From: Catajapyx aquilonaris
Taxonomy: Eukaryota
Length of the DNA stretch: 64,000 nucleotides
Reading direction: 5' to 3'
Assembly (NCBI GenBank): GCA_000934665.2
Contig: KZ538137.1
Location: 62,001-126,000 of the forward strand
Shown one piece after another: positions 1,114 through 62,824 of this stretch (the first letter of the stretch is position 1; the number at the start of each line of letters is the position of its first letter). The translations under genes and the position numbers were made by a program. The notes under the pieces are model-generated. The model did not search any database, was not told where the DNA came from, and saw nothing but the letters and a program-made list of their open reading frames with translations.

Positions 1114-4100
1114 GGCCGAAAGTGCCTCCGCAAATGCACCTCGGACGAGGACTGCAAGAGTAAGAAGAAAAAGTGCCTCTGTGACGGTGCTTGCGGACTT
1201 TCGTGCATCAAACCGGGTAAGTTTTCCTTCAGCTGTTCAACCCCCACTGCTTCGGATTGCCTTGTCCTTCAAAGAATCACCTTATAAAAACAGTAGCTGG
1301 TGCAAGATCGTGACGAATTTGCTAACATGCGATTCCTTCATTTCCTCCTTTCGACACTGTCGTTTACGCATATGACGTTATATGCGTCTCAGTCACGGCT
1401 CACGGGAACATGTTCAGTGTGGGTTTCTAATCACGGCTGTACTATTAATTTTTTTTTCTTAAAATGACATTGACGTAGCCATGGGGCAAGTTCAAGATCA
1501 AAAATGTTCTCGGTGCAGATTTCACGTGTAGCTTATCAGATAATGTGCATGCAGACGTATGAAAACGCGAGTAGGATAATACTATTTTTAAAATGCATTA
1601 CAGTGCACAATACAACTGGTGAACGTATGCAATCAAAGCCCAAGATACATGCGAACTATAATTTAAAAACAGGTAATGATGATACAGTCCAGGGTACACA
1701 AATTTGCACATTGATTACAGTACAGTACTTTGTAGGCGTTTGTAGGCATGCAATAGATTACATTTCACTTGGTTCAATATTTTGACGAGGATGAATGCAA
1801 TGTAAATGCAAATAAAATTTACTGTACAGTTTTGTGTAAATCTATAGTGCATTCAGTATGCAGAGGGAATGAGAAAACTAGAAGGAAACTCAGGAGTGTA
1901 ACTCATACATAGTTTATACACTACCCTCCTCTTATAAGGGAAGAAACCTATAATTGGGTAATAAACCAACAGTTTATACATTGCGCAGTCAAGCATGTTG
2001 CGAATTATACGAACTTGAATTATTTAGCGAGCTCCCCTTGTTTGCTCAGTACATTCTATACCTGAAGAACATCACGAATCCGGAAATTCCTCTCATGCTC
2101 ATCCTGTATAATGTCATGCCTAAGTAAACAACATCCACGTTTCTAGCCATACCTCAGTCCGCCTCTATTCATACCACCACTGAAGAAGAAAAAAACCCGG
2201 CATAGATCCAGGTAGTCCTGCTCTAAATCACTCCAAAACTTTTTCCCTCCCTCATCCCCTTCCCTCTTTAACAAACCCCAACGCATTCTCCTGTACTACC
2301 AGGCATGGAATTTGATTCCAGAATTGCCTATATAAGGTGGGCCACAAAAAAGTGAAGGAATCCCCTGAAGGAGAAACCCGATCTAAATCGGTTAAGGGAA
2401 CAATGCGGGTACGGGAATAGGATCTGCGGGCTGTCGAAAAAAAAAACCCTGAAAAAAGAGGAAGGGACGAAAATCCCTTGGGCCTATGTGTAAAGCGCCT
2501 GCCTTCTTCAAGATACGATGAGTTCCAATCAGACTAGCCGCCATTTAAAGTGGCCATCGGGACTCTTTTCTTTCTTTTCAGTCCTTCCCGCGCTGAGTTG
2601 GCGGGAATAGTGAGGGACGCTATCCTAGGCCTAGTATTGGAAATGCTGGGCCTAGATGCTTTCGTTCAGGCCATCCATCACTTTCCCCCATTTTCTATAC
2701 TTCCTTGTATCCTTTACATCCTTGCGGAGCTTCCAGTGGTGCTGATTTACAGCTGGGCCGCCACTTTGGATTTACGAGCCACCTTCGCCTGGGGACTCTT
2801 CTGAGGAATCAACCGTCTGCCCAATCTGGAAAGACCGATGCCCATTTTGATCGTGGCTTGATTTTTTTTCTCTGGGTTCTTCTTCGGGGTGATTGGGTTT
2901 CAGTGGAGCCCATATCAGAGGAGATTGGGGATCGTTCATTTATTGGCGGATGGTTTGGGCGCGTTGTTGGTAATTTTGGCACCATTCATGCAGGATAAAT
3001 TATAGGCACTGTAAAGGCGAAATTTATTGGAGATTTAGATGCATAAGCTGGCTCATAAATATTGTTACCATATATATCGGACTATTCATTTTCAAATAAT
3101 CTTATCAACAAAGCAATTAGCGAGATGGATCTGTAATTGCCTTGGACTATCCAAAAGTAGAATGGAGTAGGTCAGATCGGTATGCTGAAAAGCATTATGT
3201 CAGTCGATGGATAGAGAAGGTGACGGGAGGGATTTGGAGTCCGAGCCATGTCCTGCCCTATAGGGCTTTGCATCTGGCATGTGAGTGACGTGTAGAAGGA
3301 TATAACATTTCAAGCACGTCCGCATCATGGTTTCCATCAAATCTCCCTCCCCGATTTCCCGAAACGCTTGCCAAAACTGCTGATTCTAGAAAAAAAAATA
3401 CAACAAAGAGTTCTACTAAGCGGCCTTGCATTCTCACAAGTTTTTCTCAACTATCTATTCAGTGCACGAGTTACTTTCAACATTTTATGCGGCTGCAGTG
3501 CTCATCTAAGTTTGGAGAAAGGCAGTAAAGTTTATTGAAGCAATTTCACGTCGATTGGTAACACAACCTTGAGGAATTTGAGCAAAATTTCTCCAGGATC
3601 CCTCTGGATTTTGGGAGAGTATCCGGTTTATAAAAATGCCTCTGCATCCGGACCACTTTAAGCCCCTCTAGGACCGTCATCACAAGGAGAAGCTTTTTGT
3701 GTTTCTTTCCTTGATGTGATCCGCTCCATTTCCCGCAGAAAAACGCCTTCGGAATCCTCTGCAACCCCAGTCCCATAATTCAGCAGGAAGAGAGCAGGTG
3801 GTCCTTCTAGCCCTCTACCTAACCTACACAGTCTTCATTCCTACTCCCAAACTCTTTTAGGGACATCAATGGGGGACAAAAAAAAGGGAAGAAAAAGAAG
3901 TCTTCAAAGGGAAACTATAGGCTTAAATTCGCTAGACTCGATCCTTTTTAGATTGCCAAAATATTTCCAGAACAATTGACAAAGTTTGAGTTAAGGAGAG
4001 GATTCGCTCAGATATAATTGTCTCGGACGTACAGTGAATCATAAGAAACTGGAAAATGGGGTTAAATTGATACCAAGTCAGTGAATAAAATGTGCATCCA

Positions 4101-7100
4101 TTTCGTTCATACAATGCAGTGCAGCCATTTTATTAATATAAATTGACTTATCACATTTTAATTTTCGGGACGATTTTAAATATTCTTTGCACTCAGCAAT
4201 TTTAATAATTTAGTCGACCCATGTCACTTACATTAGCACTTAAGTACTTGTAACTTCTAAAACATTTAAAAATGACAAAAGTTCATGCCCTCAGCTGAAT
4301 AACTGTTCCCAACTGCAAATTTCCCAACATCCAATTCGGATTGTCGATTGCAGTTCTGTCTGGGTTGAAATGAAGCTAGGGGTCTCCGCCCCCTCGAAAC
4401 CATCGACGAAACCAAATGTTTCGTACACCACAGTACTTCGCCTCCAAACTGCCTGTTCTCGTCTCCGAATTTTCCACCGCGAATACGTATAATTTCGTAA
4501 ATTGGCTTCACAAACCGGTGAAGAGAAACCCCCCTTTCCCTAGTCATACCCAAACCCTTTGATATAAAGCCCCGGTCTCCAATTAGCTTCCCGCACCCGG
4601 ATGGAATAATTGATTCTGGATAAGCCACAGGTGTCTTGCGTGGAAGGTAGGGTAGAGTAAATGGCGTTTCCGGATATTTACTTGGAAGCAAGAGCGGGCC
4701 TCCAAAAAGTCTTGCATCCGTGTCAACACATCGATCTGCAAGAGTAGAATCAGATTAAATAAGAAAATTTCGTCGGCTTAAGCTGCGTTTAACGACAGTC
4801 GAAGGAGTGTTATATGGTTACCTTGTGCTGTTGGAGTGACTTAGAGGATTAACGCATATTCGCTTAGATTTGGAACCGAGTTTGCAGGCTTCATTGAAAT
4901 TAACAGCCACCAACTCTGCTAATGGTTAATCAACTGAGAGTGGGACAGGTAAATGTTCTGGAGCTTAGCAGCATCATTTGTTATGTTTTCACAAAGGTGC
5001 AATTATTGAAGCTGGGAATTTTATTGATTTTTTTTTAAAATTTGCATACTGCCAGCACTTACAGAGGATACAGCTATTTTTTAAAAGTCATTTCATATTA
5101 GCCAACAGACGCTTTGTAAATGCACTACACTTTTTGCTCAAAACCAAGCCTTTCAAAACGAAAGCTCCGAAACTTTTTTCCCCATTTTATACGTTGGCCC
5201 GAAAAATACATGTACAATAATATTGCACCAGACGTGCTCTACATGCAGACAAAAAATTACCGCAGTCCTTTTTCCACTGTACTAGCCCCGATGTCAGTTA
5301 ATTTGACATTTTCTGTCTGTACACAACATTATTCATTTTCCATTTAGCTGGAGTATCCTACTCTCTGTATAAAATGGTACTATTGGGACCGGTGAAAAAG
5401 TATTCTTCGTGTTCAAAAATATTATTCAGTAGACTATAATTCTCATTTCAGACAAAGAGTGCGAGGAGCTGGGTGACCCCGACCTAGGTCACGTGGAAGT
5501 ACAGGGTCGGCAATTTGGGGACAAGGCCGTGTACAGCTGTCGAGATGATTACCGAGTGGTCGGCCTGGAGGAACGAGTTTGCCAAGCCGACGGGACATGG
5601 TCGGGACAGGCGCCTACTTGCAAGAAGAATAGTAAAGCCCCCCCCCCCCCTCTCTCTCTCTCTCTCCATTATTGCACCTCTTTTCATGGCAGGGCACGGG
5701 TTACCAGCCATTCATTATGCGAAATGTCTCTCAGGCCCGCCTGTTGGCATTCATGTTTCAGCCCCGCTTCCACTTGTGCTCTATCAAAAACCCATGGTGT
5801 AATGTTGTTGACCGGGTTCAAAAGACAGTTAGGTGAAATTATATAAGGAATACTGCTGCAGGGGAAGGCCAAAATTCTGCATGTGTAATCCTCTGATGTT
5901 AATGTCCTATAGCAACATTGATGGACTGGGGACACGTGACTAAAACTTATGGGGGTCATAAATTATTCAAAGTTTATTAAAAGACATTCTGGCGAGTAAT
6001 ACCAGATTAGGTAGTGTCAACCCCGTTTTAATGATATATAGAGGTTCGTTAGTGCAGATATGGTTACAGCCTGCATTAAATCCTCGATAAAAATTATTAA
6101 TTGGCGTTGGGAGTGGTTTCAGTGTATAGATGGGAGAGAGAGGCTTCGATTAATGACTCTGACGGACAGATTTTCCTTCGTTTTAGTCTACTGTACGGAA
6201 CCGCCAGTGATAGAGCACGCGCGTCACAACGCTCCATTGGAACAAACCACTTTCGACATGAGCACCATGCTGCAGTACCAATGTTACCCAGGCTACACCA
6301 CCAAAGGATTTGCCCGCGCCAAATGTCTCTTTTACAACGGAACTGCGAGGTGGTTTGGACCCGACGTCAGCTGCGAGCGTAAATGTTTCCTTATGCTCTA
6401 CCTCTTTTGTACATTACCCCCTTTTTAATTAAGTACAAGTGCATTTTCATGCAGTGAAATGGCATGGTCGTACTTACCGCAACAGCAAGGTTTCAGGATT
6501 TACTGTACAAGTTCCTAGAAAATAATGTAATAATGTAATGCACCTGGCTGGGTCATTTCCTTTTCATTAATTTGCATCATTATTTACTAGTGACATAATA
6601 ATCGATGTTGTTAATAATTCATTGCTGCACCTGACTTTGCGTAATTATCACCGAAGCAGTGATCAATTGGATGATTTTAAGCGAAGTATATCACCCTTCA
6701 AGTGTAGAAATAATACTGTACTGGACTGGCACTTCACTTCTCTTGTGCATCGTTGAACTATCGCTAAACCCGTTTTTGGCATGCTATAGATGTAAATGAA
6801 AAACTGATTTGGCAGAAGTCCATCCTTAATGTGGTGCTTTAGTATTCGGAGTGAGGGGTAGGGGTGGGTAGTGGGGTCGCACTTCAATCTGTGATAGCCC
6901 CTTGCACATATCCCCGCACTGTTGACCCCATTCTAAATAACATGAAATGGCCCAGCAAACAAAATGCTAAAGTACTTTTACGAAGAGCACAAAAACGGAA
7001 GAGTGGAAATCAATGATGTTCCATTCACTTTTTTTCTACAAAAAAAAAGCACGGAATTGTGGAGAACCAGCCGATATTTTGAACGGACGTCGAGAGGGCA

Positions 7101-10100
7101 CGTGCTTTTCCTTCAGCTGTCGTGTCACCTATCATTGTCAACCTGGATTCGAATTGGAAGGAAGGACACATCGTTATTGTCAAGCCGATGGAACTTGGAG
7201 CCCTCGAGAATTGCCATCGTGCGGACGTAAGTGTACAAAATTTTTAAAAATAATATTCATACCAAAAATTTCGATATTGGGTCAGGAAGTTTAATTCGTA
7301 TTTTTCAAAAGTGGAATGGATGAGGCCGCAAACTTCCCATTTTGGCCAACATAATGTGCATCCCTCCCCACGGCCTCTCAAAGTTTGGAAACCACTAACT
7401 AGTTAGATATCGACAACGAAATTCCAAGTTAATGAAAACTGGCAACAAGTTCAAGGAAGCGTGACACACGGGTCAATACGCGGAAATTAAAATGCAAACT
7501 CTTACACATTGTGTAAACGTGAATTATTCTTAATGCCGCCAGTAATGCCTATTATTACGACGGTCAATGTTGAAATTATTTTCATTCCATTGTTAAAGTA
7601 AGCACTACAACATTTTTGTAATTGAAGTTTTAAATGCATAGCTCAGTGTCTCTTAAAAAAAACTTACGGATGAAAATAGCCTGCAGTTACATAAGTCATT
7701 ACGTTTGTGGCTCACCTGGGCCTGTTGTATAACAGCTGGAATTGTACCCATATTCAGCCCGAGGTCACATTTTCGACAAAGCTCTCTGTTCATTATCTAT
7801 TTTCAGTTTAATTAATTCTTCATTAAAGCCTTAGGTCACGCCCAGTTCCCATTTGCGCCTGTCTCTTACACTTCCTGTTAACCAAGAGAGTATTTAATAT
7901 TGCCTTCCACCCAGGATAGAGCAATATTCACATGGCCTGTGAATTGCTGCGAAACTTATCTTTACAATAAAAGCCGGGAAAAAAAAACTTTCCAATCGTA
8001 CCGAAAGTTGGACTACTCTGTTTCTGTATGGCCAAAAAGCATTGTGCAAACGTCCTACAACATTTAAAAAGGCTTTTGACATTCGAAATTCCGCCCGAAG
8101 TATACGCCTGAAACAATCCAATATCGTGCTTTTTACAACTTGATATTGCATCTGACCGTGTTTACAAGGATTGCAAAAAAAGGGCTACTCTTTTAATATT
8201 GCAAACTTTGACTCTTCAAACGTTTTTTATGTTTAACTCACCTTGTTTTTGTTAATTTTTCAGCTGTGCAATGCCCAATTCCGGACAATCCGGTGAATGG
8301 AAAAGCGCTTTTTACAGCAGTGTCATACAATTCTGTGGTGTCATATGAGTGTAAATATGGATTCATGCTTGTGGGAGAATCCACCAGAAGATGTGGTACG
8401 GATAAACGTTGGAGTGGAGAAGAACCAGCCTGCAAAGGTCTGTTACCTTTTATAGTTCTTTTAATCTCGATGTGCTCATTTATGCTCACAATAGGTGTTG
8501 AAATTGTCTTTGGTATTACAATCGGAATATTTGGATAGTTAAAAAAATTCTCCAAGTTTACCAATAACTTTTTAGAATTTATGCCGCGTACAGTACATAC
8601 CAATACTCGAGATGCCCCCAAGCCATAATTCAAATTTTAATGTCAGCCGATTCTTTGAGAATATATTTATTGGCATCTCACAAATACTCTGCTTGTGAAG
8701 CCGGCCATGATGATTTGTATTCGGTTCTCAGAACTGTTTTCCTTTACCCAAGACAATTGAGGGACTTGCATAAAAAGCTGTAGTTTATAACCGGTCCAAG
8801 AGTTCTGCCAAACTTGCAATACACCAGTCAAAGTTTCGCCATTCCAAATATCCGATTTCAATACGAAAGGAAAGTTTTCACGTAACTTACTCTGCAGCAT
8901 TTTTTTGAAAACAGGCTTACCTATAGAAGCATAGAAATATTTGCTGCCAAATAAATTTAAATCACTTTCATATTATTGGTTCTAAATACCGACAGCATTT
9001 AACATAGTGAAGTGCACTTTAAAAAAAAAAACGTTAATCGGAAGTAATTACGCTAAAAGTTTACCCCAGCTTTGAACTTCAAAAAGTCCATTAGTGTGAG
9101 TAAAGTGGATTGCCATTTCTGAAAAACCGTTGGTAGTTCAGAGAAACATTGTCACTAACTCTGCAAAAAAAATAAGTCTTCAAAATCCCAGACTTAAAGC
9201 TGTGTGGTAAATTATTGCAGTGTTCGTCAGGGTATATTGGGATTTGGAAAGGGGACAGGTGGGGGGTGGAGAAGAAGGTGGAGAAACAGGAGGAATGTGG
9301 TTTGTTCCTTATTTCCTCCTGTGTCTCCCCTTGGCAAGCCCACAAAAAGGGGACCACGAGATCGATCGGTCTGCGTAACTTTCCTTTTACATTCCCTTTT
9401 CCAACAACCACCAGAAACCCCCCCCCCCCTTCTTTAAACTTACACCCCTTTTTTGGCTGCTTGCGTCGACCTCCCCCCTCACCACCCCCCGATGTACCGC
9501 CTTTTTTAAAATAAAAAAAAAATCTACAATCCTCCAGCATGTTGATTTCTGCTGAAGATGCCTTTCCTCAGAGGGCAATGTCACCCACGCTCTACTTTCC
9601 TCTCTCTGAAGGTAGTGCCATTGTCTAAAAGGGTTCGTCCACAATAGACGGAAGTGGGTGCCAAATTATAGCCTTACAACTCGTATATTCAGAGAGGCTG
9701 CCAGACGGGTTAGAAATCCGTCGATATTTCGGCTGGTTCCATTTAGGATCAGTTTCTCAAATTTTCTGGAATGTCACTCTCATTTCAGATATGATTATAA
9801 TAATTCAACTGACAATTATGATTATTTTTTAAATGTGGCCTATCCTAGCTTCAAACCCCTGCAGCTATCCTGCCATCCCATAGTTATTTTTTGGGGGAAG
9901 GAACTATACTGTAGGAATCGCACAAAAAAAAATAGCAATCGAGCGTGTCTCCGTAGAAATCAACTGCGGCAGTCCGGGTCTGCTTTACAACGGATGGCTG
10001 GAGGGAACCAAGACCACTCTTCACGCCGTGGTAACCTTCCGCTGCCTGGAGACGATGGCTTTCCGAGGCCCATCCCAACGCACCGTCTGCCAGTCCGATG

Positions 10101-13100
10101 GCACCTGGTCGCATCCTCTGCCCCAGTGCCTCGGTAAGTCTTCCATATATAAAAAAAAAACAATGAACACATTGGACACACTATGTCAATTGGTGCTAAA
10201 CGTGATTGCGCTGATTGCCGTCGAGCTGGACGCATATCAAATGTTCAGTTGATTGACAAAACTGTGCGGGTGCAATGTCAACACAGTCCCTGGTCATTTT
10301 GTTCCAATTGGCACTATGTCACCATCCCTCCAGCACCGCCAGTTTGGCGCGAACTAATCCCATCGAAAAGCCCTCCATCTCCCAAGCGATTTGCCACACG
10401 GTCGACGCAAGCTCTAAGTCACTCACATACATACATCACTTTCCTAACCCACCCACTGCAAAGGTCCGTCTCGTTGGTCCCCGGTGCCAAAAAGGTGAAA
10501 GCCCACAAAATTGAGAGACTAAGGGAAAAAAAAAATCAATCTTTCAACCTAAACCCCAGAGATCAACTGTGGGCATCCGGGCATCCTTTTCAACGGATGG
10601 CTGGAGAACATAGAGTCCGGGACGGCTCTAGGATCGTCAATCATCTACCGCTGCTACGATGGAATGAAGCTGGTTGGACACACCTCATCTGTATGTCAGA
10701 TCGACGGCAAATGGCGATATCCACTTCCTAAATGTCTGGGTATGGTCTCTCTTTCACACTAATACACATTAGCATTCAATGTGCTGAAGATATAAAATGC
10801 ACATGACGCCTACACATTTATTCCAAGTTAGAAAATTAGCCAATTCATATTCCCACCCTCTAGCTATGGGTCAGACTCGGATTATCGCAAAGGGACAATT
10901 TGGTATGTGACAATAATACGAAGATGCTGATTTCTGTATATGGAAAATATTTCTGAACACTACCTTACCCATGGTGTAAATATAGCAATTTTCAGCACCA
11001 TTATGTCCAATCGGCAATCAGCAGGTCACATACACGTAACCGACGTCGTGCAGGATATCCCTAAACATTAGTTACCCCCTTAAGCTGCTGGTGCAGTTGC
11101 AGTCACAGAGCTTATCTTGTTGGCTGCAGCGCAGTGCTGGAGGTGGACAGACTCCCCATCTCATGTCTCTCCCTCCATTCCTCCTCTCCCTAGAGTCCAG
11201 GGGCTTTATCGCGGGTAAGTGTGGCATCCCCTGTCCCTATTTCATCCTTTCTGTCTGGTCTATATGTCTATCTATGCATCTCCACGCCGACTCGGACTCC
11301 CCGTGGGATACACGTCGTAGTTATGGCCACACCGCCACATATACACTTTACAAAATCGGGATTTGATGTCAACGCGTAAATTCTGGCCGTAGTTTTTAGT
11401 GGCGATAAATGTGACGATGCTCATAAAAAGAAAACTGTTTACATAAGTGAATGGTGTTGCCAAATATTTATAGCGGGTTGGGAATAATGTGGGAATTTGG
11501 CATAAAAAGTACTAATTGATCGGAGCCAATAGTGTTGATCTGGCTTAATTGATGATTTTCGTTCGGGATTTCGGAAAATAAATATTTAACTTGAATTATG
11601 AATTTTTGGAGACACTGCTGTAGGCCTGTCATACTATAGCGCATTAGACGTATCCTTGATGCTATGCAACCACCATCACCACTCTCATTTGTTAACAATA
11701 TTTCCACCTTGAAGAAGTGCTGGTGGTTGTGTAACAAGCCAAAAACAGAAGCTCAAACTACTGATGTAGCGCACATTATCTTGCCGTACTGTACTGTACT
11801 GTACTGTACAGTACATTAGCTTTGCGCTTTGGAGTAAACATACGGTACTATTTGGAGCTTATGACCCTGGTTCATAGGGATATTTTTGTTCGTGGCTGTA
11901 GGCTATGTAGCTATGCAACGTAACATGCTGCAGGCTCGTATAATCGCACAGGGTGAATTTTAACTACAACTACCGTATTGTAATTAAACAATGCAGCAAG
12001 TACGCTGTGCCTGCTTCAGGCCCAAAATTGTGTTATCATAGCATTAGGACTTTGCAGTGGGCTGTAAGAAAAATATTTTTGGACTTATTTGAAATGCGCA
12101 TTTTGCTCAGTAGAAAATAAGCCTCTAAATCTTTTTTTCTGGGCGGTGAATCAAGAGCGTCTACTTTTTATGCTCTGAATATTTTAAAGAGCATCCATAA
12201 TAAATGCTTTAAGTGCGAAATCATTCATTTTCTACCTTCACAAATAGCTAATTATGCCATTTTTTTTTGCACCCAACTAGTCGTTCCATCAATTACGTTT
12301 TTCCCCATAGCTACCAGTGGTAGTAAATTAGTGACTCCAACAGATGCAGCCATAAACTGACGAAATGTGGAAGCGAATGGGTTTGTGACAGGCAAAATGA
12401 ACCCAATTTTTCAACGCCCTCACATTTTTCGAGAAGGCCCATTTTGAGAATCTAGAATGCGAATCATAATAACTGGAATGCAAGAAAGAATGAATCGTAT
12501 ATATCAAAGGAAGGAGACAGCTTGAATAATTCAGTGGGAATTAGCGCTATCTGATAATTTTATACTCCACAGAATGTGATGATAAGAGGCATGATTATAC
12601 TTCCACATGCATTTGTAGTTTTATGTGAAGCAGTTTAAAATTCATTGCGCACTGTAGACACGGCCATTTTCATTTAAACTGATAATATCTGCCTCGGACA
12701 AAATGACAGCGTATCATGTAATATGCGTACATAATAATCTGGCATTAGCATGTAGTGGCGCAAAGCAAGTAACTTTAGAACAAAGGTTTAGTCAGATATA
12801 AGCTCTAAATTAAGCACACCTGTGGAGGAAGGCATTACAGTCCACGCTATACAGGCTTACATCCTCAAGCGGAAATGGAAAACCGGAAGGGCCAGGCAAT
12901 AGTCCCTAACATTAATTACTCCAGGCCGTTTATCCTTCCGAGACTAACTAGTGGGAGGCTCAGGTATTCATGCAACAATCTAGAGCTCATGAATGCACTG
13001 TGCCGGTGCTTCCAGCGACACAATTAAATTAATGTTCACAGGACCGTCATATGAACACGCCGCACCGTTGGCAGCAAATTCTCATGAGAAATTCATGCTC

Positions 13101-16100
13101 TACAATTATTGAATTGTCAACTAACTCAATTGACAGATATGCCACAATTTAATTTTTAATTTGTCATCAGCTGATCCTTACGAAAATTCTAGTGCCCAAC
13201 ATCACAGAAACCTTTTAGTATATAAGATAATGCCATTTCCAGACATTCCACTGGTCACACTGTCGCCTGAGCTCGCGTACAGTTTACATAATATTATTCC
13301 CAACACTAAGAACAGCACTCTGTATGCTTATACCCAAAGAAGTGTCTCCTGCAGCACATCCCTGCCTGCACTCAACGCAATCCCATTACAGCTCCTTGCA
13401 TCGTCCCCACGATCCAGCACGGCCGCGTCGAGGGACAGTTGCCCGGCTCTCAAGTGCAACACGAAGAGCACATCCTGGTCGAATGTGATCCTCAGCATGA
13501 GCTGGCCTACAACGCCTCGCCTGCCACATGCCACAATGGGACTTGGACACATATCCCTAGATGCGAACCAGGTACATGAACTGTCCGAAACAATACGCAT
13601 AGCAACTAACCATTTAGAGAGAGAAAAAAAAGGTATCTGTCAAAAACAAGGGTTGATTTTATTCAACTCAAGCCTCAGGTTTCGGGCGTCGGCGCCCACT
13701 TCATTAGCAGAGTTGGGACCTAATTAACATATCAGCGGAGAAACTTTTGCAGTTGACGGGACCTCGCCTCCGGCACAGAAAATGAGAGAAGGGATGGGTG
13801 AAGGGAATGGTATGGTGCACTCTTATCGGAAATTCCACCCGTAGTGGCTCAACAGACTATTAATATTGGTGTCTATTTGTTCCGTACTGTTCCCTCTCGA
13901 AAAAAGGACGAGGACCACAAATCGTTACAGGGGGGGTACGATGCAGTCGACTATTAATTATGCAGATTGCCAATTAAGTACACTCGACTGAGACCAAAAA
14001 CGAGTGGGTATGAATTCATTGGAATTCAGTCCAAAGTGTTCCAAATCAATTGGGGCATTGCCTAATTATTGGATATTCATAAATTTAAGAGGGACGTATA
14101 TAAGACCAGCGCAGAATTGAAAAGTAGTTGCAACCCAACGCTCTTGACACACTCTCGCATAGTGCCATTTGATTGGACGGAATGGGTCATTTTCCATGTG
14201 TTGGAAGCACTTGCAGCGGCCCCGGGCATCGCAGATTCCGCAAGCCACAATGCCCCAACTTTCCACACTATATTGCTGGGGCACACATTTTTGTGCGGTT
14301 AACTCCATTAAGTTAATGCGGTATATACCGACCGACTCGCATTCATTGCTGGAGCGCAAATAAAGGGTGGTAGGCCGCGAGCGCTCTTGTTTTTTCTGTC
14401 AGTTTGTTTTCCTTCAATTTAGTTGTTTCGGTGCATGAAAATGTACCATCACAGGCAGGTAAATGCACTCATCCAGTATTTTCCACAGCCAGGTGCAAGC
14501 AGCTGCCATTAGCACCCAAGCACGGGATGGTAATAGCACCCAAAAATGACCACGGTATGAAAGCAAAATTCAAGTGCAAAGATGGATTCGTTTTGTATGG
14601 CAACAATGTGACCGAGTGTCGGTACGGGAAGTGGATTGGACAAACCCCTGTATGCAAAGAAGGTATGTAACCTATCACAGTGATATAGATATATCACAAA
14701 TCAGCACTATTTCAGTGTACTGCCCATACCCCGGAACCATCGACAACGGCAAGGTGCTTCTGGTCGGCAGCATGGGTCTGTACGACTACAGGCCATATGT
14801 TCGTCGGATCGCCACCAACCGACAAATAATGTACGAGTGTGACAGGGGTTACGTCCTGACGCAGGGACCGCCCGGGGCTACCTGCCTCGGGGGACGATGG
14901 ACCCCGTTCGAACTACCCCGATGCATCCCGGCCATGCACCCCAGAATAGGTCAACGTTTCGCTCGATCAGCCGAAGATATACACAACGGTAAAACGAAGC
15001 GGCTTACCAGAAAAGGAAACATGGCCACCAAAAGAGGACGAAAAAAGGATAAGAAAAAAGGTATACAATTTTAAAGTCGAGATTGCGGTTCCGAGCCCTG
15101 CAGGTTAGTTTGCATTGCACCTTCGGAGTTGTGAAAATACGATGGCGTCAGCTGTGGAATCTTGAGCAACAGCAGCCGTTCCCTCAGGAGACTTCACTTC
15201 GCAAGCATCCCGCAAATGATTACTTTCCACTCCAACTGCCGACTAACTTCTGACAGCATAGTTTGCACTTTCGGTGCAATTAATTCAACGTGCATAAGTG
15301 GGCTTTCATGCGATGCAGCCGTAGCACTTTCATCCTGGCTGTACCGCAACCCACTGTACAAGAAACGCGCATTGGTTGCATGCATATTAGGATAACATCT
15401 TGTTCTCACAGCGTGCGAGGCGATACCGAAGGAGCCGTACATCTACGTGGATATAGTGAAGGCAGGTAGGGATCCGAACCAGACATACGCTGCTGGGGTC
15501 ATAGTCAGGGTGACCTGCTCACAAGGGTATGGCCTCAACATGCCCCTTAATTCAACCTCCAAGTGTGTCCGCGGCAAGTGGCGCCCGAAGAAGCCCCAGT
15601 GCATCACATGTAAGTATACTGTTGCCGTACCATGTCAACAATGCGCTAATTTGTTGGATGGGATGCAGTGCCATGTTTGGTGCCGGGGGTGGACCACAGT
15701 TGGTTCAAGCGAGCCGATGGTGTACCACTGTCGGCGGGGCATGAGGTAGCCCATGGGGAAGCGGCAGAGTTCGGGTGCGAATCGGGATACCAGGCATCCA
15801 ACACGCAGGGGACCACTGCAACCCTCAGGTGCTGGTACGGGGACTGGGCTGTCTCGCAGATGCCAGAGTGTCTCTCAGGTATATCGCAACAGTGTGGGTC
15901 AATACATTGATTATTAACAGTATAATGTTTCAGTTCCTTGTGAGTTGCCCCCACTGAACCGAGGTCAGTACATGAGTGGGTATCGGCCTGGACTGACCAT
16001 CGCCCATGGATCATCGGTGGACTACACTTGCGAGGAAGGTACCGGAAAGGCAACTGCTCAACCTCTTCGGTGCCGCTTAGGTCAGCTCCGTCCGAGACCA

Positions 16101-18995
16101 CCGGCCTGCGTCGAAGGCGGAGCGGAGTTTAAAGGTGGTTCGGACATAACACGAGGAGGAGACATTAGCGTCATCGACTTCCCGGCAGGTACAGGGTCAG
16201 GCTACCGCAGGGCATGCGGACCTCCTGCCAGGGTTCAAGGTTCCCTGGTGTTCAAGGATGGGGAGCCCCTGGAAGAGACTGACGGGAGGTTTCCAGATGG
16301 GACACACGTTACTTTCAATTGTGTGGCTAGCATCATGGGGGAGAAGACTACCTGGAGGATTGTCTGCGAGGATGGGAGCTGGGTTGGGCGATCACTCAAT
16401 TGTGGTACGTCATATTTCTGATACAGAGTAGGTGACGTATAAGGCATGGCATTTTTCAATAATTTTATTGCAAATTTTCTCCAAAACAAATAGTTCTGAC
16501 AACATGCCCAGGACAGAGACCTGTGCAGTAGGCTACAGTACTACAAGAATATTTTATGAAACACTGTTGTTTATTAATTTAAAAATACAGTACAGTGTAG
16601 CTTATACATTTTACTGGAAGAGCATGCTAAATACTTCTACCAGAACACCAGAGGAGGTTTTCTATTTTCAATATTGGTAGTCAACTTTTGAAACTGATCA
16701 ACTGTGAAACTCAATATTGACCATTACATGCTGTACTTTTCAGAAATGGACAACATGGCAGACCTGGATGGGACGGGTAATCAGTCATGTGTGTTTCGTA
16801 ATGCAGAGCCAAATGTGGTGGCCTTCTACAATGACCAGCAGATCACTGAGGATGTGGTGGAGTTCCCTGCAGGCACAGAACTTATCTTCCGATGCGTTGA
16901 CATTGGCAAGTATGCTCTGAATGGGAGCCGAAGGAGAAGATGTCATCGTGGGGAATGGGACGGCGTCAAGCCTGTCTGCTTTGGACTGAACCAGGAGAAT
17001 GACTATGCCTGTGAGTGTAGATCACTTCATGAAATTACTTTCGTAATAAATTACACAACACATTATATTTCTCTATTTCTCAGTGGAGAAACCTCCAACT
17101 ATCCTCTTCCGACATCAACTGGGTCCAATTGCCCAGAGCAATGATGGGAAACTGATTGTATACCCAGGTACCATTCTCCATATGGAGTGTTTGTGGATCC
17201 GCCGCTTTGGAGCTCCCCGCTGGGAGGTCAGTCACAGCTACCGAAAGTATCCCGAGACATGGAGTACTGATCCTGGTCGTGATCCTAACCTGGAGTACAG
17301 GCTTAGCATCTACCATGCCCAGAGAGATGACTCAGGCACCTTCACATGTGTCACACCCACACGGCATACCCACAGCATTGAGATTGAAGTCAAAGGTCAG
17401 AATAATACAAGAACAAGATTTTTGTGTACATGTTTCTTCTTCATAATTCCCAAGTGGGTTTTGGATTCTTTAAAAATTACATTACATGCTTAGACTTGCA
17501 CACCATATCTACCTGTCATGACATGTACTCGTATTTGAAGAAGGACTACAATGCCCTTAGTTGGAAAAGAATATCGTTTGACACCTTGAAAATACAAAGC
17601 TTATCTGAATTAATGTTCAAAAGTCAGTCCATCATTTAAAGCTTAAACCCTAGCATACTCTAATAGAATTTGAACTTTCGTTGACAGCCATCCACTGTCC
17701 GCCAATCCCAGATCGACGAGGCCTCCACGTGTCAACCCAAAGCACAAAAATGAATGCACGTGTTCTCTTTTCTTGCAACAATGGTAACAATCTCCTAGGT
17801 GCCCATGAAGCCACCTGCCTCCCTTCAGGCAACTGGAGTTCTCCAGCACCAGTGTGTGAGAGCATAGAATGCCCAGACATGTCCAACTTAACTGACCGCA
17901 ATGTGAAAGTATCCATCCTCAGCCGAGAGGTTGGAGGTCGGGCAGTGTTCAGCTGTTCCCTTTCTTATGGGCTAAGAGGGCCATCTGAAGCTATCTGCCA
18001 GCAGAGTGGAGAGTGGTCAGATCCACTCCCTAAATGTGAAGGTATAGTTGCTTTTACTGCTCTCTGTCTAGGGAGAAAAATGTGGCCTACTCTACATTAC
18101 AACAGTAGTTGCAGTTTTTAAACAAATCGCAATTCATCAATTCAATGTTACAGTCCCATTGCACCCCTTACCATTTGTTCACAACTTGTTGAATCACCTT
18201 AGTAATTAAAAATATTGTAGTGGTCATTATGACAACTGAATGTAGAATGAATGGATCAATTTAAATGAACTGTGAATGTTACCTAGGCAATTTTTCTTGT
18301 GAACAGAGGTAAGATGTGAGCCACCAACACCACCCGAGCATGGCTACTTGCTGGGATTTGGCATCTACAAGGCAGGGGACATTGTCCAGTTCCACTGCCA
18401 CACTGGGTACATGCTCGAGGGAAGACCCATCATCGTCTGCCAGGAGAACGGACGCTGGTCAAGACCTGCACCAAAATGTGAATTGCATGATCTGCTTATA
18501 ACCTGTATAGAATTCTCACATGCCAGTACATGAAATAGAAAATAATTGAAACCAGCTCAGGACATCTCAAAAATATTTTTTCAGTGTAATACGTTGCACT
18601 TACGCATCATGCATGTGTCAGAATGAAATGTCAAGAATTATTATCAAAATTTATGTAATAGTAATTACCCTCCTTGCTTTTCTTGAATGACTGTAATAAT
18701 TACCTATAGTGAACGTTTCGAAGCTTCATTTCATAATCACACTAGAGGGCATCTTACCAATGTTAAGTTACTCTCATTCACAACTCTTTTATTTAAAGGT
18801 GTCCAAGCTTGCACTTATCCAGGCACAACCATTGGGGGCTCCATTTCTCTGGTCAAGTTCTACTACAGCATTGGTGAAAATGTGACCTTTGAGTGCGCTG
18901 AGGGATTTGAAATACATGGTGCGCGCATGTTGAGGTGTCTGCGGAATGGGAAGTGGTCAAATGCAATCCCTAACTGTCTCACCCCCTCTACGTAA
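1114..18995 (+). CDS. LEV-9/Hasp-like secreted WAP + CCP (sushi) + Ig synaptic scaffold protein; 5' end lies upstream of the window
   Basis: Exons read by GT-AG signals and phase-1 junctions: 1114-1216 (WAP: CLRKCTSDEDCKSKKKKCLCDGACGLSC), 5452-5631, 6187-6378, 7050-7226, 8264-8437, [9957-10133 or 10560-10739], 13392-13571, 14489-14662, 14716-15060, 15412-15609, 15669-15878, 15934-16404, 16744-17010, 17084-17395 (Ig: MECLW...DSGTFTC), 17688-18041, 18307-18477, 18799-18995 (TAA). Repeated C-x-P...Y-x-C..G..L.G....C...G.W....P.C sushi pattern. AATAAA at 19332. Confidence 0.9.
9957..10133 (+). CDS. CCP5 exon variant A of the sushi gene
   Basis: ccgtag|AAATC...CTCG|gtaagt; 177 nt, phase 1-1; EINCGSPGLLYNGWLEGTKTTLHAVVTFRCLETMAFRGPSQRTVCQSDGTWSHPLPQCL. 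Confidence 0.9.
10560..10739 (+). CDS. CCP5 exon variant B of the sushi gene (tandem paralogue of 9957-10133)
   Basis: ccccag|AGATC...CTGG|gtatgg; 180 nt, phase 1-1; EINCGHPGILFNGWLENIESGTALGSSIIYRCYDGMKLVGHTSSVCQIDGKWRYPLPKCL. Missed by the ORF track in this frame. Confidence 0.88.
11194..11214 (+). CDS. candidate 21-nt microexon of the sushi gene (ESRGFIA)
   Basis: ~25-nt pyrimidine tract (tctctccctccattcctcctctccc) + tag, then 21 nt, then a consensus G|gtaagt donor; phase 1-1, no stop codon. Confidence 0.55.
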
Positions 18996-19684: not shown

Positions 19685-21494
19685 TCACATGTCCAGGTCA
19701 ATTCCAACCTTAGATAGACATTCAGTAATCCACTTTGGCACTTCCTTATCTTTATACATTCGTGCCATAAAGTCACACACAAACTCTGGAAAGCTCCCTT
19801 TCTTTATGCTGTCTCTAATAGCTTTCATGAGGCGCATCTGAAACACAAAACAAAAGTGAGATAGCTTCAACCTTAAATGTCACATACGCTTAAATATTTT
19901 ACAGCAACATACCTGATAACGAACATTGTGAACAGAAAGCAAATGACATGAAACTGTCTCCACTGTTGCTATGCTGTTTAGGTAAGCCCTCGTATGCCTC
20001 TTGCAAGTGGAGCAGTCGCAATTTGGATCAATTGGACGAAAGTCCATTGCAAATGCTTTTTGTTTCAGGTTCATTTGGCCTCCATCAACAAGTGCACATC
20101 CAAATCTCTGAAACAGCACACTTTATGTTCAGTTTAGCCATGGAAAAACCAGATTGCAGAATTGCTGTAATTTGTTGGCAATCATTTACGACACATTATT
20201 AGGTGCTTTACCACGCTTATTCTTTTCACAAATGGCCCATTTGGGTACAGTGTACCTCAGTTCCAGCAAATTTATTTTTGGGTCACTTGAGTTACTGTAC
20301 AATCATTAATACAAGTACCACTACAAAATTAGAACTGTATCGTATGTAACACATTTCTTATTACTATATTCTCTTTTTCCGGTTCCATTAGGGTTTAAAT
20401 TTATTTGCAAGAGCCACCAAATTGTGAAAAACATAAAAATACACACCGCAGTCCTAGTTGGAAATACACAATCAAACATGTCAACTCCCAGGGCACAGCA
20501 AACAACCAGATCCTCAGCAAACCCCACTCCCATAAGGTATCGAGGCTTATCTTTTGGAAGAATTCCAGTGGAGAGGTAAACCATCTTCCAGAAGTCATCC
20601 TTGGCCTCTCCACCACTCAAACCACCAATGGCATACCCTCGGACCTCTCTAGAAGACAACTGTTTGGCTGATTCTACCCTCAGGATGGGGTCCAGTCCAC
20701 CTTGGACGATGGGAAACAGGGCCTGAGACTCAGGTCTCCCATGGGCCTTGAGGCAGCGGTCGACCCAACGAGTTGTTCTGAAACCAAAAATAACTGAGGT
20801 TTCAATCTGTCTTCATATGGTAGGTTTGCATGTGTGATAACAAAAAATTTACCTATGCATTGCCTCTTCAACTCGTGGACCAGTGACAGTGGATGAAACC
20901 ACATCATCCAGTTGCATGATAATATCAGCACCAATCGAATTCTGAATTTCAATGGACTTTTCTGGGCTCAACATGCATTCAGTTTCATCATATGGCGACT
21001 TGAATTTAACTCCTTCCTCCGTCACCTCTGACAGTGATGACAGCGATACCATCTGGAACCCTCCTGAATCAGTCAGCAGCGCTCTTTTCCAGTTCATAAA
21101 GTTGTGCAGCCCCCCCGCTTTCTCTAGCAGTTCAGGACCCTAGGAATGAATCAATTTGTAATGAACTGTAACTGACTGGCGACATATACTCACAGGGCGT
21201 GTTCCCATATGGTAAGTGTTGGCTAGCATTATGTGGCAGTCTGTATTCTCAACTTGTTCGGGCAACAATCCTTTTAAAGTCCCCTGAAAACCGAATGCCG
21301 TTACCATATGCTTCTTACAGTTAGTAGGAATAGTAACTGACCTGAGTCCCGACCGGCATGAATACAGGTGTATCCACACTCGCATGTGGCAGTGTCATCA
21401 CCCCGCACCTGGCTCTGGTCACAGAGCATTCCGCCAGTACTTTGAAGGCAAGCGACTTAGCCGGTGCAGGACACGCCGCTCCCGCTGCCGCCAT
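19685..21494 (-). CDS. QTRT1: queuine tRNA-ribosyltransferase catalytic subunit
   Basis: Exons 21494-21342, 21283-21194, 21139-20853, 20777-20447, 20107-19913, 19837-19685. TGT motifs [78 protein letters not shown], and zinc ligands CxCxxC...H. Confidence 0.96.
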
Positions 21495-21815: not shown

Positions 21816-24397
21816 ATGTCGAGGGGGGACTCGGATGCGGTACCAAAGGCAGACCGCATCATTGGGATGGAGGACCAGCAGCAACCGGAGTGGTTGCCAC
21901 TCGCAGTCTCGTATGTTGAGTACCCAGGAGGTATGTGGCACAATCCGTTAGTGTTCGGGATAAAATATTGATGGTGACCAGGAATGCCGAAGCGGTCGTG
22001 CCGTCACTCATGGGACGTATTGTAATCCCTTTCAGGTGACTACGTGGGGAAGGCACTAGCCTTTGCAAGCCTCCTACCTCTGGCCATCATCACTGGATTC
22101 ATCACCCTCATACTCTTCAGGAGAGATCTGCACACGGTGATTTATCCGCACTTATATCCTTCTCATCACCTGCCGTGAACATTGCCACAGTTGCCATCTG
22201 TCAAATGCCGCTTTTGGTAGTGAAAGCTCCAAAAAATGTTTCTTTCATTATTCAGGGAGCGGGTTAACTCTTTTGTGTGTTATAATTAGAAGACGGGCTG
22301 TAAGTTCTGTAGTGGGTTATGATGACTTTCTGGTGGACAGAACGGCTAGAACCATGTATGAAAATGAAAAATTTGCAATGTCGAGTAAGCCATTGCAGGA
22401 AAGAATAATCTCAGCTTACACAAATGGCACCATTTATGGCACCATTTATTGTTCGAGCAGGAAAATGTATTGCACGGTTCATTATTGGTTATGTATAGAT
22501 GACTCTGCTAAAAGGCCCGTCAATAAAATTATGGTTTGTTTCTTAATATAGCTGTAAGTCATCTAGATTTACTATGCAACATGACTCAGAAAATGTGAAG
22601 TCTTCATAAACTTTTTTTGTTCATTTGCAGATAGCCTTCTTTATTGGCACAATAAGCAATGAGCTTGTGAATCTGGTCCTGAAGAACATCATTTGTGAAG
22701 CAAGACCTTTATTGCGCAAGAGTGGCCTCTACACTGAGTATGGCATGCCCTCTTCCCATTCCCAGTTTATGTGGTTCTTTACCACATACGTGACGTGCTT
22801 CGTTTGCGTCAGGTATGAGCACACCTTCCCTTGCAAAAAGGGGAGGTTTAAAGAAGGATGCTATTATCTAATTTCTGCAAGGTCATCTCTTTTTTATGTG
22901 TACTTGGCAGCAGTAGAAAAAAAAACTTGATTTTCAACCTTGCCCTAACTCTTATATTTGTTTGACTCTGCAGGTTACATCACATGAATAACAATTCCCT
23001 TCCACAAAACTTATGGAAGGTGGCAATAATTTCAACGTGCTTGGTGGCAGCTGGTGTTGTCACCATCTCAAGGTAAGTTATTACAATAATTAATTGCGTA
23101 ATATTGCATACGATGGTGTAACTCTTAAATGAATGGTAGAAATAGAGAAAATTGCACGAGCCACACACCTGACAAATAAATTGCAAATGTTCTCCATGTA
23201 GAGTACACAAGTTTTGCTTGTACTCCTTTACTTGGAACCTTACTTGGAACTTTCTGGTGTTGCTTTGCTAACTGTAAAGCTACAAAGATAATATTTTCTT
23301 AAACCTACATAATTATACACATTATGCCATATTTTAAAATAATACTCGTTATGATCGTTTTAAATAATATGATAATTATTTCATTCTGGGTGTGCTCAGA
23401 AAACTTGAATTTAAGAGAACATAATAATTAGACTTGGCAGTAATTATTACAAAATCCCAACTTGACAATTGCATGTTTCTATGGACTACACTCCAATTTA
23501 CAGAAGTCTGAACCTTTTTGGATATCTATGCGCCTGAGGGGTCGGTGAGCTGCTGCAAAAGTAGTCCCCGGTATCTCTGGCTTTCTCGAAGAAACAGTGC
23601 TGGTACACATGTAATTCGACTGCCTAATTATCATGGGCACCCCCTGCCGCAGCTGCAGCACTACACAAACTGCATGTTTTGTTGTGAGGAGCGGTAGGGC
23701 CCAGCATGTGGGGCACTACTTTCGGGCTTATGGATATCCAAAAAGGTTCAGACTTATGTAAATCGGAGTGTAGCATTAGAAGAATGCCTGTGCAGTGAAA
23801 AAGATAACTGCCTAGGACTATTCCTGCTGACTTCTTCACAACACAGGCATACTTGTAGCTCCCAACTAGTAATTCAGGTCCATAAAAATGTAGTTAATGT
23901 AACAGTGCCATGTGATATGGACTATACAGTATTAGAGATGGTATGTATCATGTTGCATTCTTGGATTCATGGAAATAAGTTCATAAAGTAAGAGCAACTT
24001 GAGTCAGGAACTTTATTCAGTATAAATGTTTTAACATGTTGGTCATTTCTTGTAGGGTGTACCTGTTGTACCACACATGGGCGCAAGTTTTATGTGGATG
24101 CATCCTAGGAATAGTCTATGGACTCATTTGGTTTGCTGTCATTCAGTTTGTGCTGACTCCTCTTTTTCCTCACATTGTTTCCTGGTGAGCAATTTTTAAT
24201 ATACCTATTTCCTGAGGTCTGCAGATTGACTCCTTACCCTTACTGGCACATTTTACTATGTTAACAGGCCTGTCAGCGAATTCCTGATGATCCGCGACAC
24301 AACTCTGATCCCTAATGTGTTGTGGTTTGAGTACACCAATAGCCGTCAAGAGGCAAGGGCTCGTGGCCGCAAGCTGGTGTCCATGAAGTCCCAATGA
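21816..24397 (+). CDS. DOLPP1: dolichyldiphosphatase 1 (PAP2 family)
   Basis: Exons 21816 (or in-frame ATG 21867)-21930, 22036-22136, 22631-22812, 22974-23072, 24056-24184, 24268-24397. Motifs [66 protein letters not shown]. Confidence 0.93.
23489..23770. mobile_element. Tc1/mariner-type MITE in a DOLPP1 intron
   Basis: TA|CACTCCAATTTACAGAAGTCTGAACCTTTTTGGATATC ... GATATCCAAAAAGGTTCAGACTTATGTAAATCGGAGTG|TA. Confidence 0.8.
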
Positions 24398-61978: not shown

Positions 61979-62824
61979 GGCCGGAATCGTGGTGGCTCGC
62001 GCATGTATGGTCCTGCAAGTGATGTCACGCCTGTAAACATGGCTGCCAGTAAAGGGACCATATATCTAAAGGAGAAGTCCATCGTGGTGACCTCCTGTAT
62101 CGGCTCTTTAATCGGCCGGACTCAACCCCCAGATATCACTTGCAAAGCCTGGTATCTGTGACGCAATGGGTTCTAACAACCAATCCCGGAACAGGCTTCT
62201 CGCGCGGGTTGGGTGTGTAGGTGGGGGCAAGGGTAGGGGTTTCTCTGTCAGGTTAGGGGGTTGGAGAATCAGACGCAGCGGGCAGTTGTGATTGTTGCAC
62301 CACTACTTTTAAAAATCCATCATGTTGCATAGGGTGGTAGGAAGTAATTATTTTTCATGAGGTCTTTAGGTGCGCAATGTGATCCGTGTGACCGGCGGTA
62401 CAATAAATCCTTCCCAACTATACAATGAGCATCCAAACTGGCCCTCAGGCTGCCCCTGGGTGCACCCCACACCATTGCAGTGCATTCAGCTGGGGATGTG
62501 ATGATAAATCCAACATTACATAACTGAGAACGCACATTCAAAGTGGCCCCCTGGCAGCCCCCAAGCCCCAGGCCTCCCCCGGGCACTCTCCCCCCCAACC
62601 TGAAGCAAACCCTGCCCCACCGAAACTCCCTGGGGGCCTGAAAAAGCCCAGGGCCAACCCTCCCGTAAGTCCTATGGAATCTAGAGAGGTCCCGTGGATT
62701 TGCAGGATGATTTCAATCGCGCGCCTCCCGTAACTTTTCACCACGGTGGCGTCCGTCGTCTGTACGGGAGTTACGTCACAATTTACGCCCCTTCAGACTT
62801 ACGCGAGCCACCACGATTCCGGCC
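61979..62824. mobile_element. PIF/Harbinger-like MITE
   Basis: TTA|GGCCGGAATCGTGGTGGCTCGCG ... CGCGAGCCACCACGATTCCGGCC|TTA, perfect 23-bp TIR. Confidence 0.85.

Follow-up and report, generated by a model that had tools for sequence, protein, structure and literature searches.

The 64,000-nucleotide stretch considered here, hereafter the window, comprises positions 62,001 to 126,000 of the forward strand of contig KZ538137.1 in the Catajapyx aquilonaris assembly GCA_000934665.2. Its plus strand carries the greater part of a gene that encodes a secreted multi-CCP protein of the Hasp/LEV-9 type, within which the exon for the fifth CCP domain is present as two adjacent homologous copies, exons A and B (Table 1). 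A WAP-domain exon is followed by a CCP-coding body, the internal exons of which are phase 1-1 throughout. Counting one of A and B, the protein has eight CCPs before an RFAR sequence and 17 in total (12 reaching the Pfam cut-off, four slightly under it and one recognized by its cysteine pattern alone), in agreement with the original prediction for this locus, which had arrived at exactly eight and 17. Orthologues have basic runs at the position matching RFAR and, by analogy with what PMC9083331 describes for LEV-9 and Hasp, the protein may be cleaved there. The exon between CCP13 and CCP14 (17084-17395) returned weak immunoglobulin matches only (Ig_3, 0.0054, under the cut-off) and is the best conserved exon in comparison with orthologues (82% to a blattodean protein).

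The closest proteins carry the NCBI names hig-anchoring scaffold protein, Hasp, lev-9 or the generic SVEP1-like, and the window exons are colinear with named Hasp/lev-9 proteins in tblastn searches. Together with the WAP exon and the 17 CCPs, these orthologues uphold the earlier assignment to a LEV-9/Hasp-type scaffold gene. Maximum-likelihood analysis of 34 full-length orthologues placed the window protein outside a fully supported clade of 21 neopteran rows and within a weakly supported hexapod group with two Collembola (Shimodaira-Hasegawa-like approximate likelihood ratio test, SH-aLRT, 80). From this one-gene tree, the window gene is read as belonging to a non-neopteran hexapod lineage. 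Both Hasp and LEV-9 have the role of arranging acetylcholine receptors within the synaptic cleft. As described in PMC9083331, LEV-9 is a secreted protein of eight CCPs and one WAP domain that must be cleaved C-terminally and that, in concert with LEV-10 and OIG-4, gathers levamisole-sensitive acetylcholine receptors into clusters. The same source gives Hasp, which is also processed, a WAP domain and up to seventeen CCPs, in line with the earlier likening of the 17 domains to the Drosophila Hasp count, and treats processing and cholinergic synaptic-cleft localisation as functions established in C. elegans and Drosophila (PMC9083331).

Exons A and B had been described as adjacent phase 1-1 exons of 177 and 180 nt, and splice sites, open frames and Pfam all bear this out. 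Exon A encodes INCGSPG...EGTKTTLHAVVTFRC...TWSHPLPQC between the acceptor tccgtag/AAATCAAC and the donor CCTCG/gtaagt, and exon B encodes INCGHPG...ENIESGTALGSSIIYRC...KWRYPLPKC between aaccccag/AGATCAAC and GTCTGG/gtatgg (slashes mark exon boundaries); all four sites are canonical AG/GT, the pyrimidine tract before exon A being weak (gagcgtgtctccgtag). Each exon is a complete Sushi/CCP module with an open frame in which four cysteines and the tryptophan are kept, and Pfam Sushi (PF00084, cut-off 20.7 bits) recognizes both A (4.6e-9, 37 bits) and B (8.2e-11, 42.6 bits). By BLASTP the two share 29 of 60 residues (E 6e-21), with conserved ends and a divergent middle, matching the common pattern INCG.PG.L.NGWLE ... 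VCQ.DG.W..PLP.CL noted originally. The proposed junctions also coincide with the best splice sites on either side, donor 8437 and acceptor 13392. No third A- or B-like copy was detected between 8438 and 13391 in a scan with type-specific hidden Markov models (HMMs), other open reading frames (ORFs) of the window reaching at most 43.9 bits.

Three sequence criteria have been put forward for mutually exclusive exons, namely length, compatibility of splice sites and phase, and homology (Pillmann et al. 2011, PMC3228551). The lengths of A and B differ by a single codon (177 and 180 nt), and A, B and the flanking exons are all phase 1-1 with AG and GT at their borders. For homology, pairwise scoring (local, BLOSUM62) took in 13 of the 18 coding exons, amongst which the A-B score of 157 was the highest off the diagonal, followed by 108 (A/CCP3) and 99 (B/CCP3). 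Exon B shuffled 1000 times gave a mean score of 22.6 and a maximum of 45 against A. The statement that A and B resemble each other far more than any other CCP exon in the gene is thus right in naming the best pair, although 'far' is somewhat generous.

Table 1. Features of the Hasp/LEV-9-type gene in the window, with sites of the intron element in four metagenome loci
Feature	Position	Strand	Evidence and remarks
WAP-domain exon	1114-1216	+	Pfam WAP 7.2e-6, 26.6 bits (cut-off 20.8), tblastn; donor G/GTAAGT
CCP-coding body, Hasp/LEV-9 orthologue	5452-18992	+	16 coding exon positions; tblastn, splice sites, Pfam
Exons 5' of A/B	5452-5631, 6187-6378, 7050-7226, 8264-8437	+	
CCP4 exon, constitutive, upstream	8264-8437	+	tblastn, splice sites, Pfam Sushi 2.9e-13; donor 8437 would join 9957 or 10560
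Exon A	9957-10133	+	CCP5 variant, A type, 177 nt, phase 1-1; splice sites, ORF, Pfam, HMM
Exon-A arm of perfect 10-bp complement	9997-10006	+	Pairs with intron 10325-10334; lead only
A-B intron	10134-10559	+	426 nt, U2-type GT..AG ends
Intron arm of 10-bp complement	10325-10334	+	In A-B intron, 226 nt upstream of exon B
Exon B	10560-10739	+	CCP5 variant, B type, 180 nt, phase 1-1; splice sites, ORF, Pfam, HMM
CCP6 exon, constitutive, downstream	13392-13571	+	Starts APCIVP; tblastn, splice sites; acceptor 13392 would take 10133 or 10739
Exons after A/B, first half	13392-13571, 14489-14662, 14716-14988, 15412-15609, 15669-15878, 15934-16404	+	
RFAR, candidate processing site	14955-14966	+	Minimal R-x-x-R basic site after CCP8
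Exons after A/B, second half	16744-17010, 17084-17395 (Ig-like), 17688-18041, 18307-18477, 18799-18992	+	Stop follows 18992
TTCYGGGNRTCTC element sites	L008:2411-2423, L009:6320-6332, L010:1179-1191, L012:3765-3777		

The two exons belong to two separately conserved types. With A-type and B-type HMMs built without the window sequences, exon A scored 115.8 bits against its own type versus 77.3 against the other, and exon B 131.0 versus 74.7; both exons carry the type-specific residue at each of five diagnostic columns. Window A is 79% identical to the A domain of the copepod Lepeophtheirus and window B 83% identical to orthopteran B domains. A tree built from 37 CCP5 domains contained a B clade of 19 rows (support 100/98), in which window B stands beside insect, collembolan and decapod sequences and one from an isopod; window A grouped with collembolan and copepod A domains (87/89). 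The A types and outgroup forms were poorly ordered below the B clade which, because the alignment has only 59 columns, is the only firm grouping in this tree. Lepidopteran B-type domains (e.g. P0023, P0034 and P0037) end in TWSHPLP as A does, not in the WRYPLP of other insects, and Bombyx stands at the base of the B clade; this ending could be convergent or reflect an old partial exchange between the exons.

Searches with each exon and with the A-type profile found the B type as the sole form in every named insect protein inspected, and all 21 neopteran rows of the gene tree carry B only. The A type was found in Collembola (Folsomia, Orchesella), copepods (Lepeophtheirus, Tigriopus), decapods (Eriocheir, Penaeus japonicus, Homarus, Procambarus, Cherax) and environmental sequences, and a lone A-like domain stands in the orthologues of chelicerates (Varroa and two further sets) and of a mollusc (Liolophura). 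This distribution indicates that the CCP5 exon duplication predates the malacostracan/hexapod split; the A type looks ancestral and B derived, and neopteran insects appear to have retained B only. Conservation of both exons since before that split argues that both are used. We consider it highly improbable that one of them is a silent relic, no longer spliced in this lineage. Although the acceptor of exon A has a weak pyrimidine tract and the B-only neopteran models imply that A has been lost in related lineages, both exons have open frames, AG/GT sites, four cysteines and the tryptophan, and an unused exon would not have stayed as close to its type as the identities and diagnostic columns given above.

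The genomic arrangement recurs elsewhere. When metagenome contigs were searched with the A-type profile, 28 loci emerged, four of which (L008, L009, L010 and L012) have exon A followed, 221-371 nt on, by an exon B with matching phase and AG/GT sites. By exon identity these four loci are nearest to Folsomia (up to 85%) and are referred to below as collembolan-like. Exon A also precedes B in the two collembolan protein models that contain both, from Orchesella (P0001) and Folsomia (OXA56919). On sequence comparison, the A/B order in the window is that of Collembola, and each exon is orthologous to its own conserved type. Two copepod-like loci, L004 (5479-6759) and L005 (5525-6428), have an A exon and then a CCP6 exon, after 411 nt in L004 and 80 nt in L005; no B exon was found between A and CCP6 or in the sequence downstream, and copepods may have only the A type.

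Annotated isoforms of related species use the orthologous exons singly. In Folsomia candida, RefSeq isoform X2 (XP_021948742) has the A type and isoforms X1 (XP_021948741), X3 and XP_035705618 have B; in Eriocheir sinensis, X1 (XP_050719319) has A and X2 (XP_050719320) has B; and in a third, decapod-like species (XP_066943299-307) three isoforms have A and four have B. Within each of these three species sets, A and B isoforms differ only in the CCP5 exon and have identical flanks. Single use in the three sets comes with the caveat of two isoforms that omit both exons, considered below. In proteins of relatives, APC[IVK]xP directly follows A and B alike. More broadly, 356 collected proteins were classified with both HMMs, with at least 60 aa required on each side of the domain. 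Flanked domains were present in 208 proteins, of which 62 had A only, 144 B only and 2 A+B, the remainder being unflanked fragments (n = 50) or lacking the domain (n = 98). Single CCP5 copies joined to APC were also found in intron-free contigs, for example P0002 (1494 aa in 5569 nt), P0199 (1535 aa in 4744 nt), P0327 (1543 aa in 5157 nt) and L013; such contigs are hardly longer than their coding length, which suggests spliced transcripts. The number of domains also speaks for single use, since with one exon the 8 + 9 arrangement is preserved, in accord with eight CCPs in LEV-9 and up to seventeen in Hasp (PMC9083331).

The means by which one exon would be chosen in the window was considered at the level of frame, intron and RNA structure. 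The joined gene model is stop-free and in frame with A, with B, with A+B (1294 aa) and with neither (1175 aa), so that enforcement by frameshift and nonsense-mediated decay is ruled out. Steric hindrance and spliceosome incompatibility are likewise out, because the A-B intron, at 426 nt, is long enough for splicing and all sites are U2-type GT-AG, with no U2/U12 mismatch. Three window introns were searched for a shared 30-nt docking site able to serve both acceptors or both donors; control segments did as well as the best candidates in 4 of 30 and 5 of 30 cases and as well as the others in 12-30 of 30, and the candidates were discarded as evidence. Inverted repeats over the acceptor of A (9541-9555/9950-9964) and the donor of B (10731-10745/13233-13247) were not unusual in comparison with controls, and pairing of the A-B intron with the starts of A or B was equalled by 34 of 59 and 26 of 59 control segments. 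Exon A and the intron are perfectly complementary over 10 bp (9997-10006/10325-10334), a duplex predicted to form, with pair probabilities of 0.96-1.00 for the four pairs reported, and 10 of 60 control segments had as good a duplex energy. Separately, a fold of 9942-10559 predicted a hairpin at 9944-9976 in which CCGUAG, at the acceptor of exon A, pairs with an internal CUGCGG of that exon (pair probability about 0.67) and which would sequester the acceptor AG.

A candidate signal for choice was found in the collembolan-like loci. Their A-B introns have in common a 13-nt element, TTCYGGGNRTCTC, present as a single copy in each, 92-128 nt ahead of exon B; it is found in none of the 24 other loci, a count that is not an independent test since the pattern was derived from the four. 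Its sequence complements positions 12-15 and 18-25 of exon A, and one of the pairs differs by a compensatory change (U-A in three loci, C-G in L009). Partition-function folding of the stretch running from the A acceptor to the element gave the core pairs a probability of 1.00 in all four loci, and all 12 pairs were part of the minimum-energy structure in two. A cruder gapless pair count exceeded that of shuffled introns in 94, 28, 436 and 9 of 500 trials, an uneven statistical support, and a near-palindromic CCGG core accounts for part of the complementarity. With exon A looped out by such a helix, B would be favoured, and the element is a candidate loop-out switch. A toggle in which the element pairs alternately with A and B was not supported, as only in L012 and L008 did the start of B rank amongst the best four partners. 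Duplexes of whole introns from the four loci were uninformative (z -2.1 to +0.7), a MAFFT alignment of five A-B introns contained no shared block, and the A-B intron of the window has no copy of the element at up to two mismatches.

Several observations weigh against one-at-a-time use of A and B. In a protein assembled from repeated one-domain exons, similarity of length, phase and sequence is a weak criterion by itself, and the weight rests on orthology and on the isoforms of relatives. The RefSeq XP sequences are predicted models; alternative RefSeq isoforms normally need transcript support. The coding sequence of the window forbids neither A+B nor the omission of both, each being in frame, and no RNA structure that might enforce a choice there stands out from control segments. 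Isoforms lacking both exons are annotated in E. sinensis (X3, P0319) and in the XP_0669433xx set (P0233), with the junction ...KCK/PPCIVP..., and use is thus not strictly exclusive in these two decapod sets. Finally, two proteins contain both exons, namely Orchesella P0001 and Folsomia OXA56919 (P0163), each a genome-project model of its submitters.

These two models, the 1294-aa frame and a spliceable 426-nt intron would all fit a gene in which both exons are constitutive, giving two adjacent CCP5-like domains and 18 CCPs and making the single-exon isoforms of relatives annotation artefacts. We regard this as unlikely. Only 2 of the 208 flanked models hold both exons, and one of these, P0163, contains within its A domain an eight-residue insertion that is absent from RefSeq X2 and suggests a faulty model, whilst the transcript-like intron-free contigs hold one copy, and a single CCP occupies that position in the chelicerate and mollusc orthologues and in every insect orthologue seen. 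Slightly less doubtful, though still improbable, is that A and B are independent cassettes, with A, B, A+B and neither all made appreciably through uncoupled choices. The four in-frame combinations, the annotated omission of both exons in Eriocheir and the XP_0669433xx set, and the lack of an enforcing structure in the window beyond controls speak for independent cassettes. Against them, A+B was seen only in the two submitters' models and in no RefSeq or transcript-like sequence amongst the 356 proteins, A and B isoforms are otherwise identical within each of three species sets, and the conserved helix of the four collembolan-like loci points to a coupled choice in that lineage.

On balance, orthology and the isoforms of relatives suggest that C. 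aquilonaris probably makes mainly A-only and B-only forms. The original prediction of mutually exclusive splicing is accordingly retained as one-at-a-time use, which the relatives' isoforms favour; its strict form is not, in view of the in-frame alternatives, the annotated omission of both exons and the two A+B models. The accompanying suggestion that the pair was undescribed needs a similar division. No paper on the A/B isoforms, or on alternative CCP exons in Hasp or LEV-9 generally, was found in the literature searched, yet A/B isoforms are already known as RefSeq models for three relatives.

We propose that A and B arose by an old tandem duplication of the exon for the fifth CCP in a Hasp/LEV-9-type synaptic-cleft scaffold. 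The pre-mRNA would join the CCP4 donor at 8437 to either A or B, and the chosen exon to the CCP6 acceptor at 13392, giving two main 17-CCP proteins that would differ only in the central part of CCP5. The swap would fall inside the LEV-9-like N-terminal block of eight CCPs ahead of RFAR and may change a binding surface of the scaffold. Hig and acetylcholine-receptor complexes are the candidate partners of the swapped domain in this protein family. The choice itself would be made by RNA structure or splicing factors and not by reading frame, intron size or spliceosome type. A fuller scenario can be offered only tentatively, as possible and not as probable. Here, A/B at CCP5 would be a splice switch inherited from the malacostracan/hexapod ancestor, giving two scaffold versions with different partner specificity, which crustaceans, springtails and this early-branching hexapod have kept and Neoptera have lost, hence its never having been seen in Drosophila; in springtails at least, the switch would be set by the helix between exon A and the intron element that loops A out.

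A conserved and naturally swapped CCP5 would mark that domain as a likely specificity surface, and A and B offer two natural variants for comparisons of binding and localisation. To our knowledge, functional studies have been confined to a nematode and a fly and, as models from the group to which flies belong carry B only, the switch would have gone unnoticed there. As a product of tandem exon duplication the pair is ordinary, and its isoforms already figure in RefSeq for relatives, so the gain in knowledge is moderate; of most interest are how old the pair is, that Neoptera seem to have lost it, and that springtail-like loci share a conserved helix between exon and intron. A practical consequence is that genome annotators should not fuse A and B, as two collembolan genome-project models do.

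Outside the Hasp gene, Pfam searches of long ORFs identified neighbouring genes, including a queuine tRNA-ribosyltransferase (TGT, 1.4e-46) at 20324-20812 on the minus strand. SCAI exons lie at 34511-35874 (minus strand), a multi-KH-domain RNA-binding protein at 55395-58551 (plus strand) and a weak PAP2 match, under the cut-off, at 22610-22927 (plus strand). Runs of N at 26528, 50838-50852 and 57825-57831 total 23 bases, none of them in the Hasp gene.

Amongst known systems, the nearest counterparts are the isoform pairs of the springtail Folsomia and the crab Eriocheir, which like the window place A- and B-type CCP5 domains at the same position, between ...KCK[EQ] and APC...; the Folsomia model OXA56919 also shares the order of the exons. 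These pairs differ in being predicted models from other lineages, the window gene standing outside both Collembola and Neoptera, and Eriocheir adds to its A and B isoforms one that omits both. Hasp of Drosophila melanogaster (CG10186) resembles the window gene in its WAP domain and up to seventeen CCPs (PMC9083331). The comparison with Drosophila made originally nevertheless needs correction, as the A/B pair is not a general arthropod Hasp feature. Neopteran models carry B only, so the pair is not something to look up in flies; judging from these models, which include no Drosophila sequence, the choice is probably absent there. C. elegans LEV-9 has a WAP domain and eight CCPs, the number that precedes RFAR in the window protein, and ends after them, whereas the window protein continues with nine CCPs and an Ig-like exon. 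Nematode LEV-9 proteins match the A-type profile at 45-48% identity, and no A/B pair was seen amongst these matches, though the motif scans did not pick out their CCP5.

Dscam1, Mhc, 14-3-3 zeta and N-Cadherin are arthropod examples of mutually exclusive clusters that arose by tandem exon duplication. The window pair differs from such clusters in having two variants only, and no docking site fitting both exons was found in the introns scanned. It resembles them in that neighbouring exons, homologous, alike in phase and almost alike in length, code for one and the same part of the structure. According to PMC3228551, exon choice is presumed to be guided by intra-intronic RNA pairing. The collembolan-like loci approach this arrangement in their predicted long-range helix, although the pairing there would link an intron element with the coding start of exon A rather than two intron sites.

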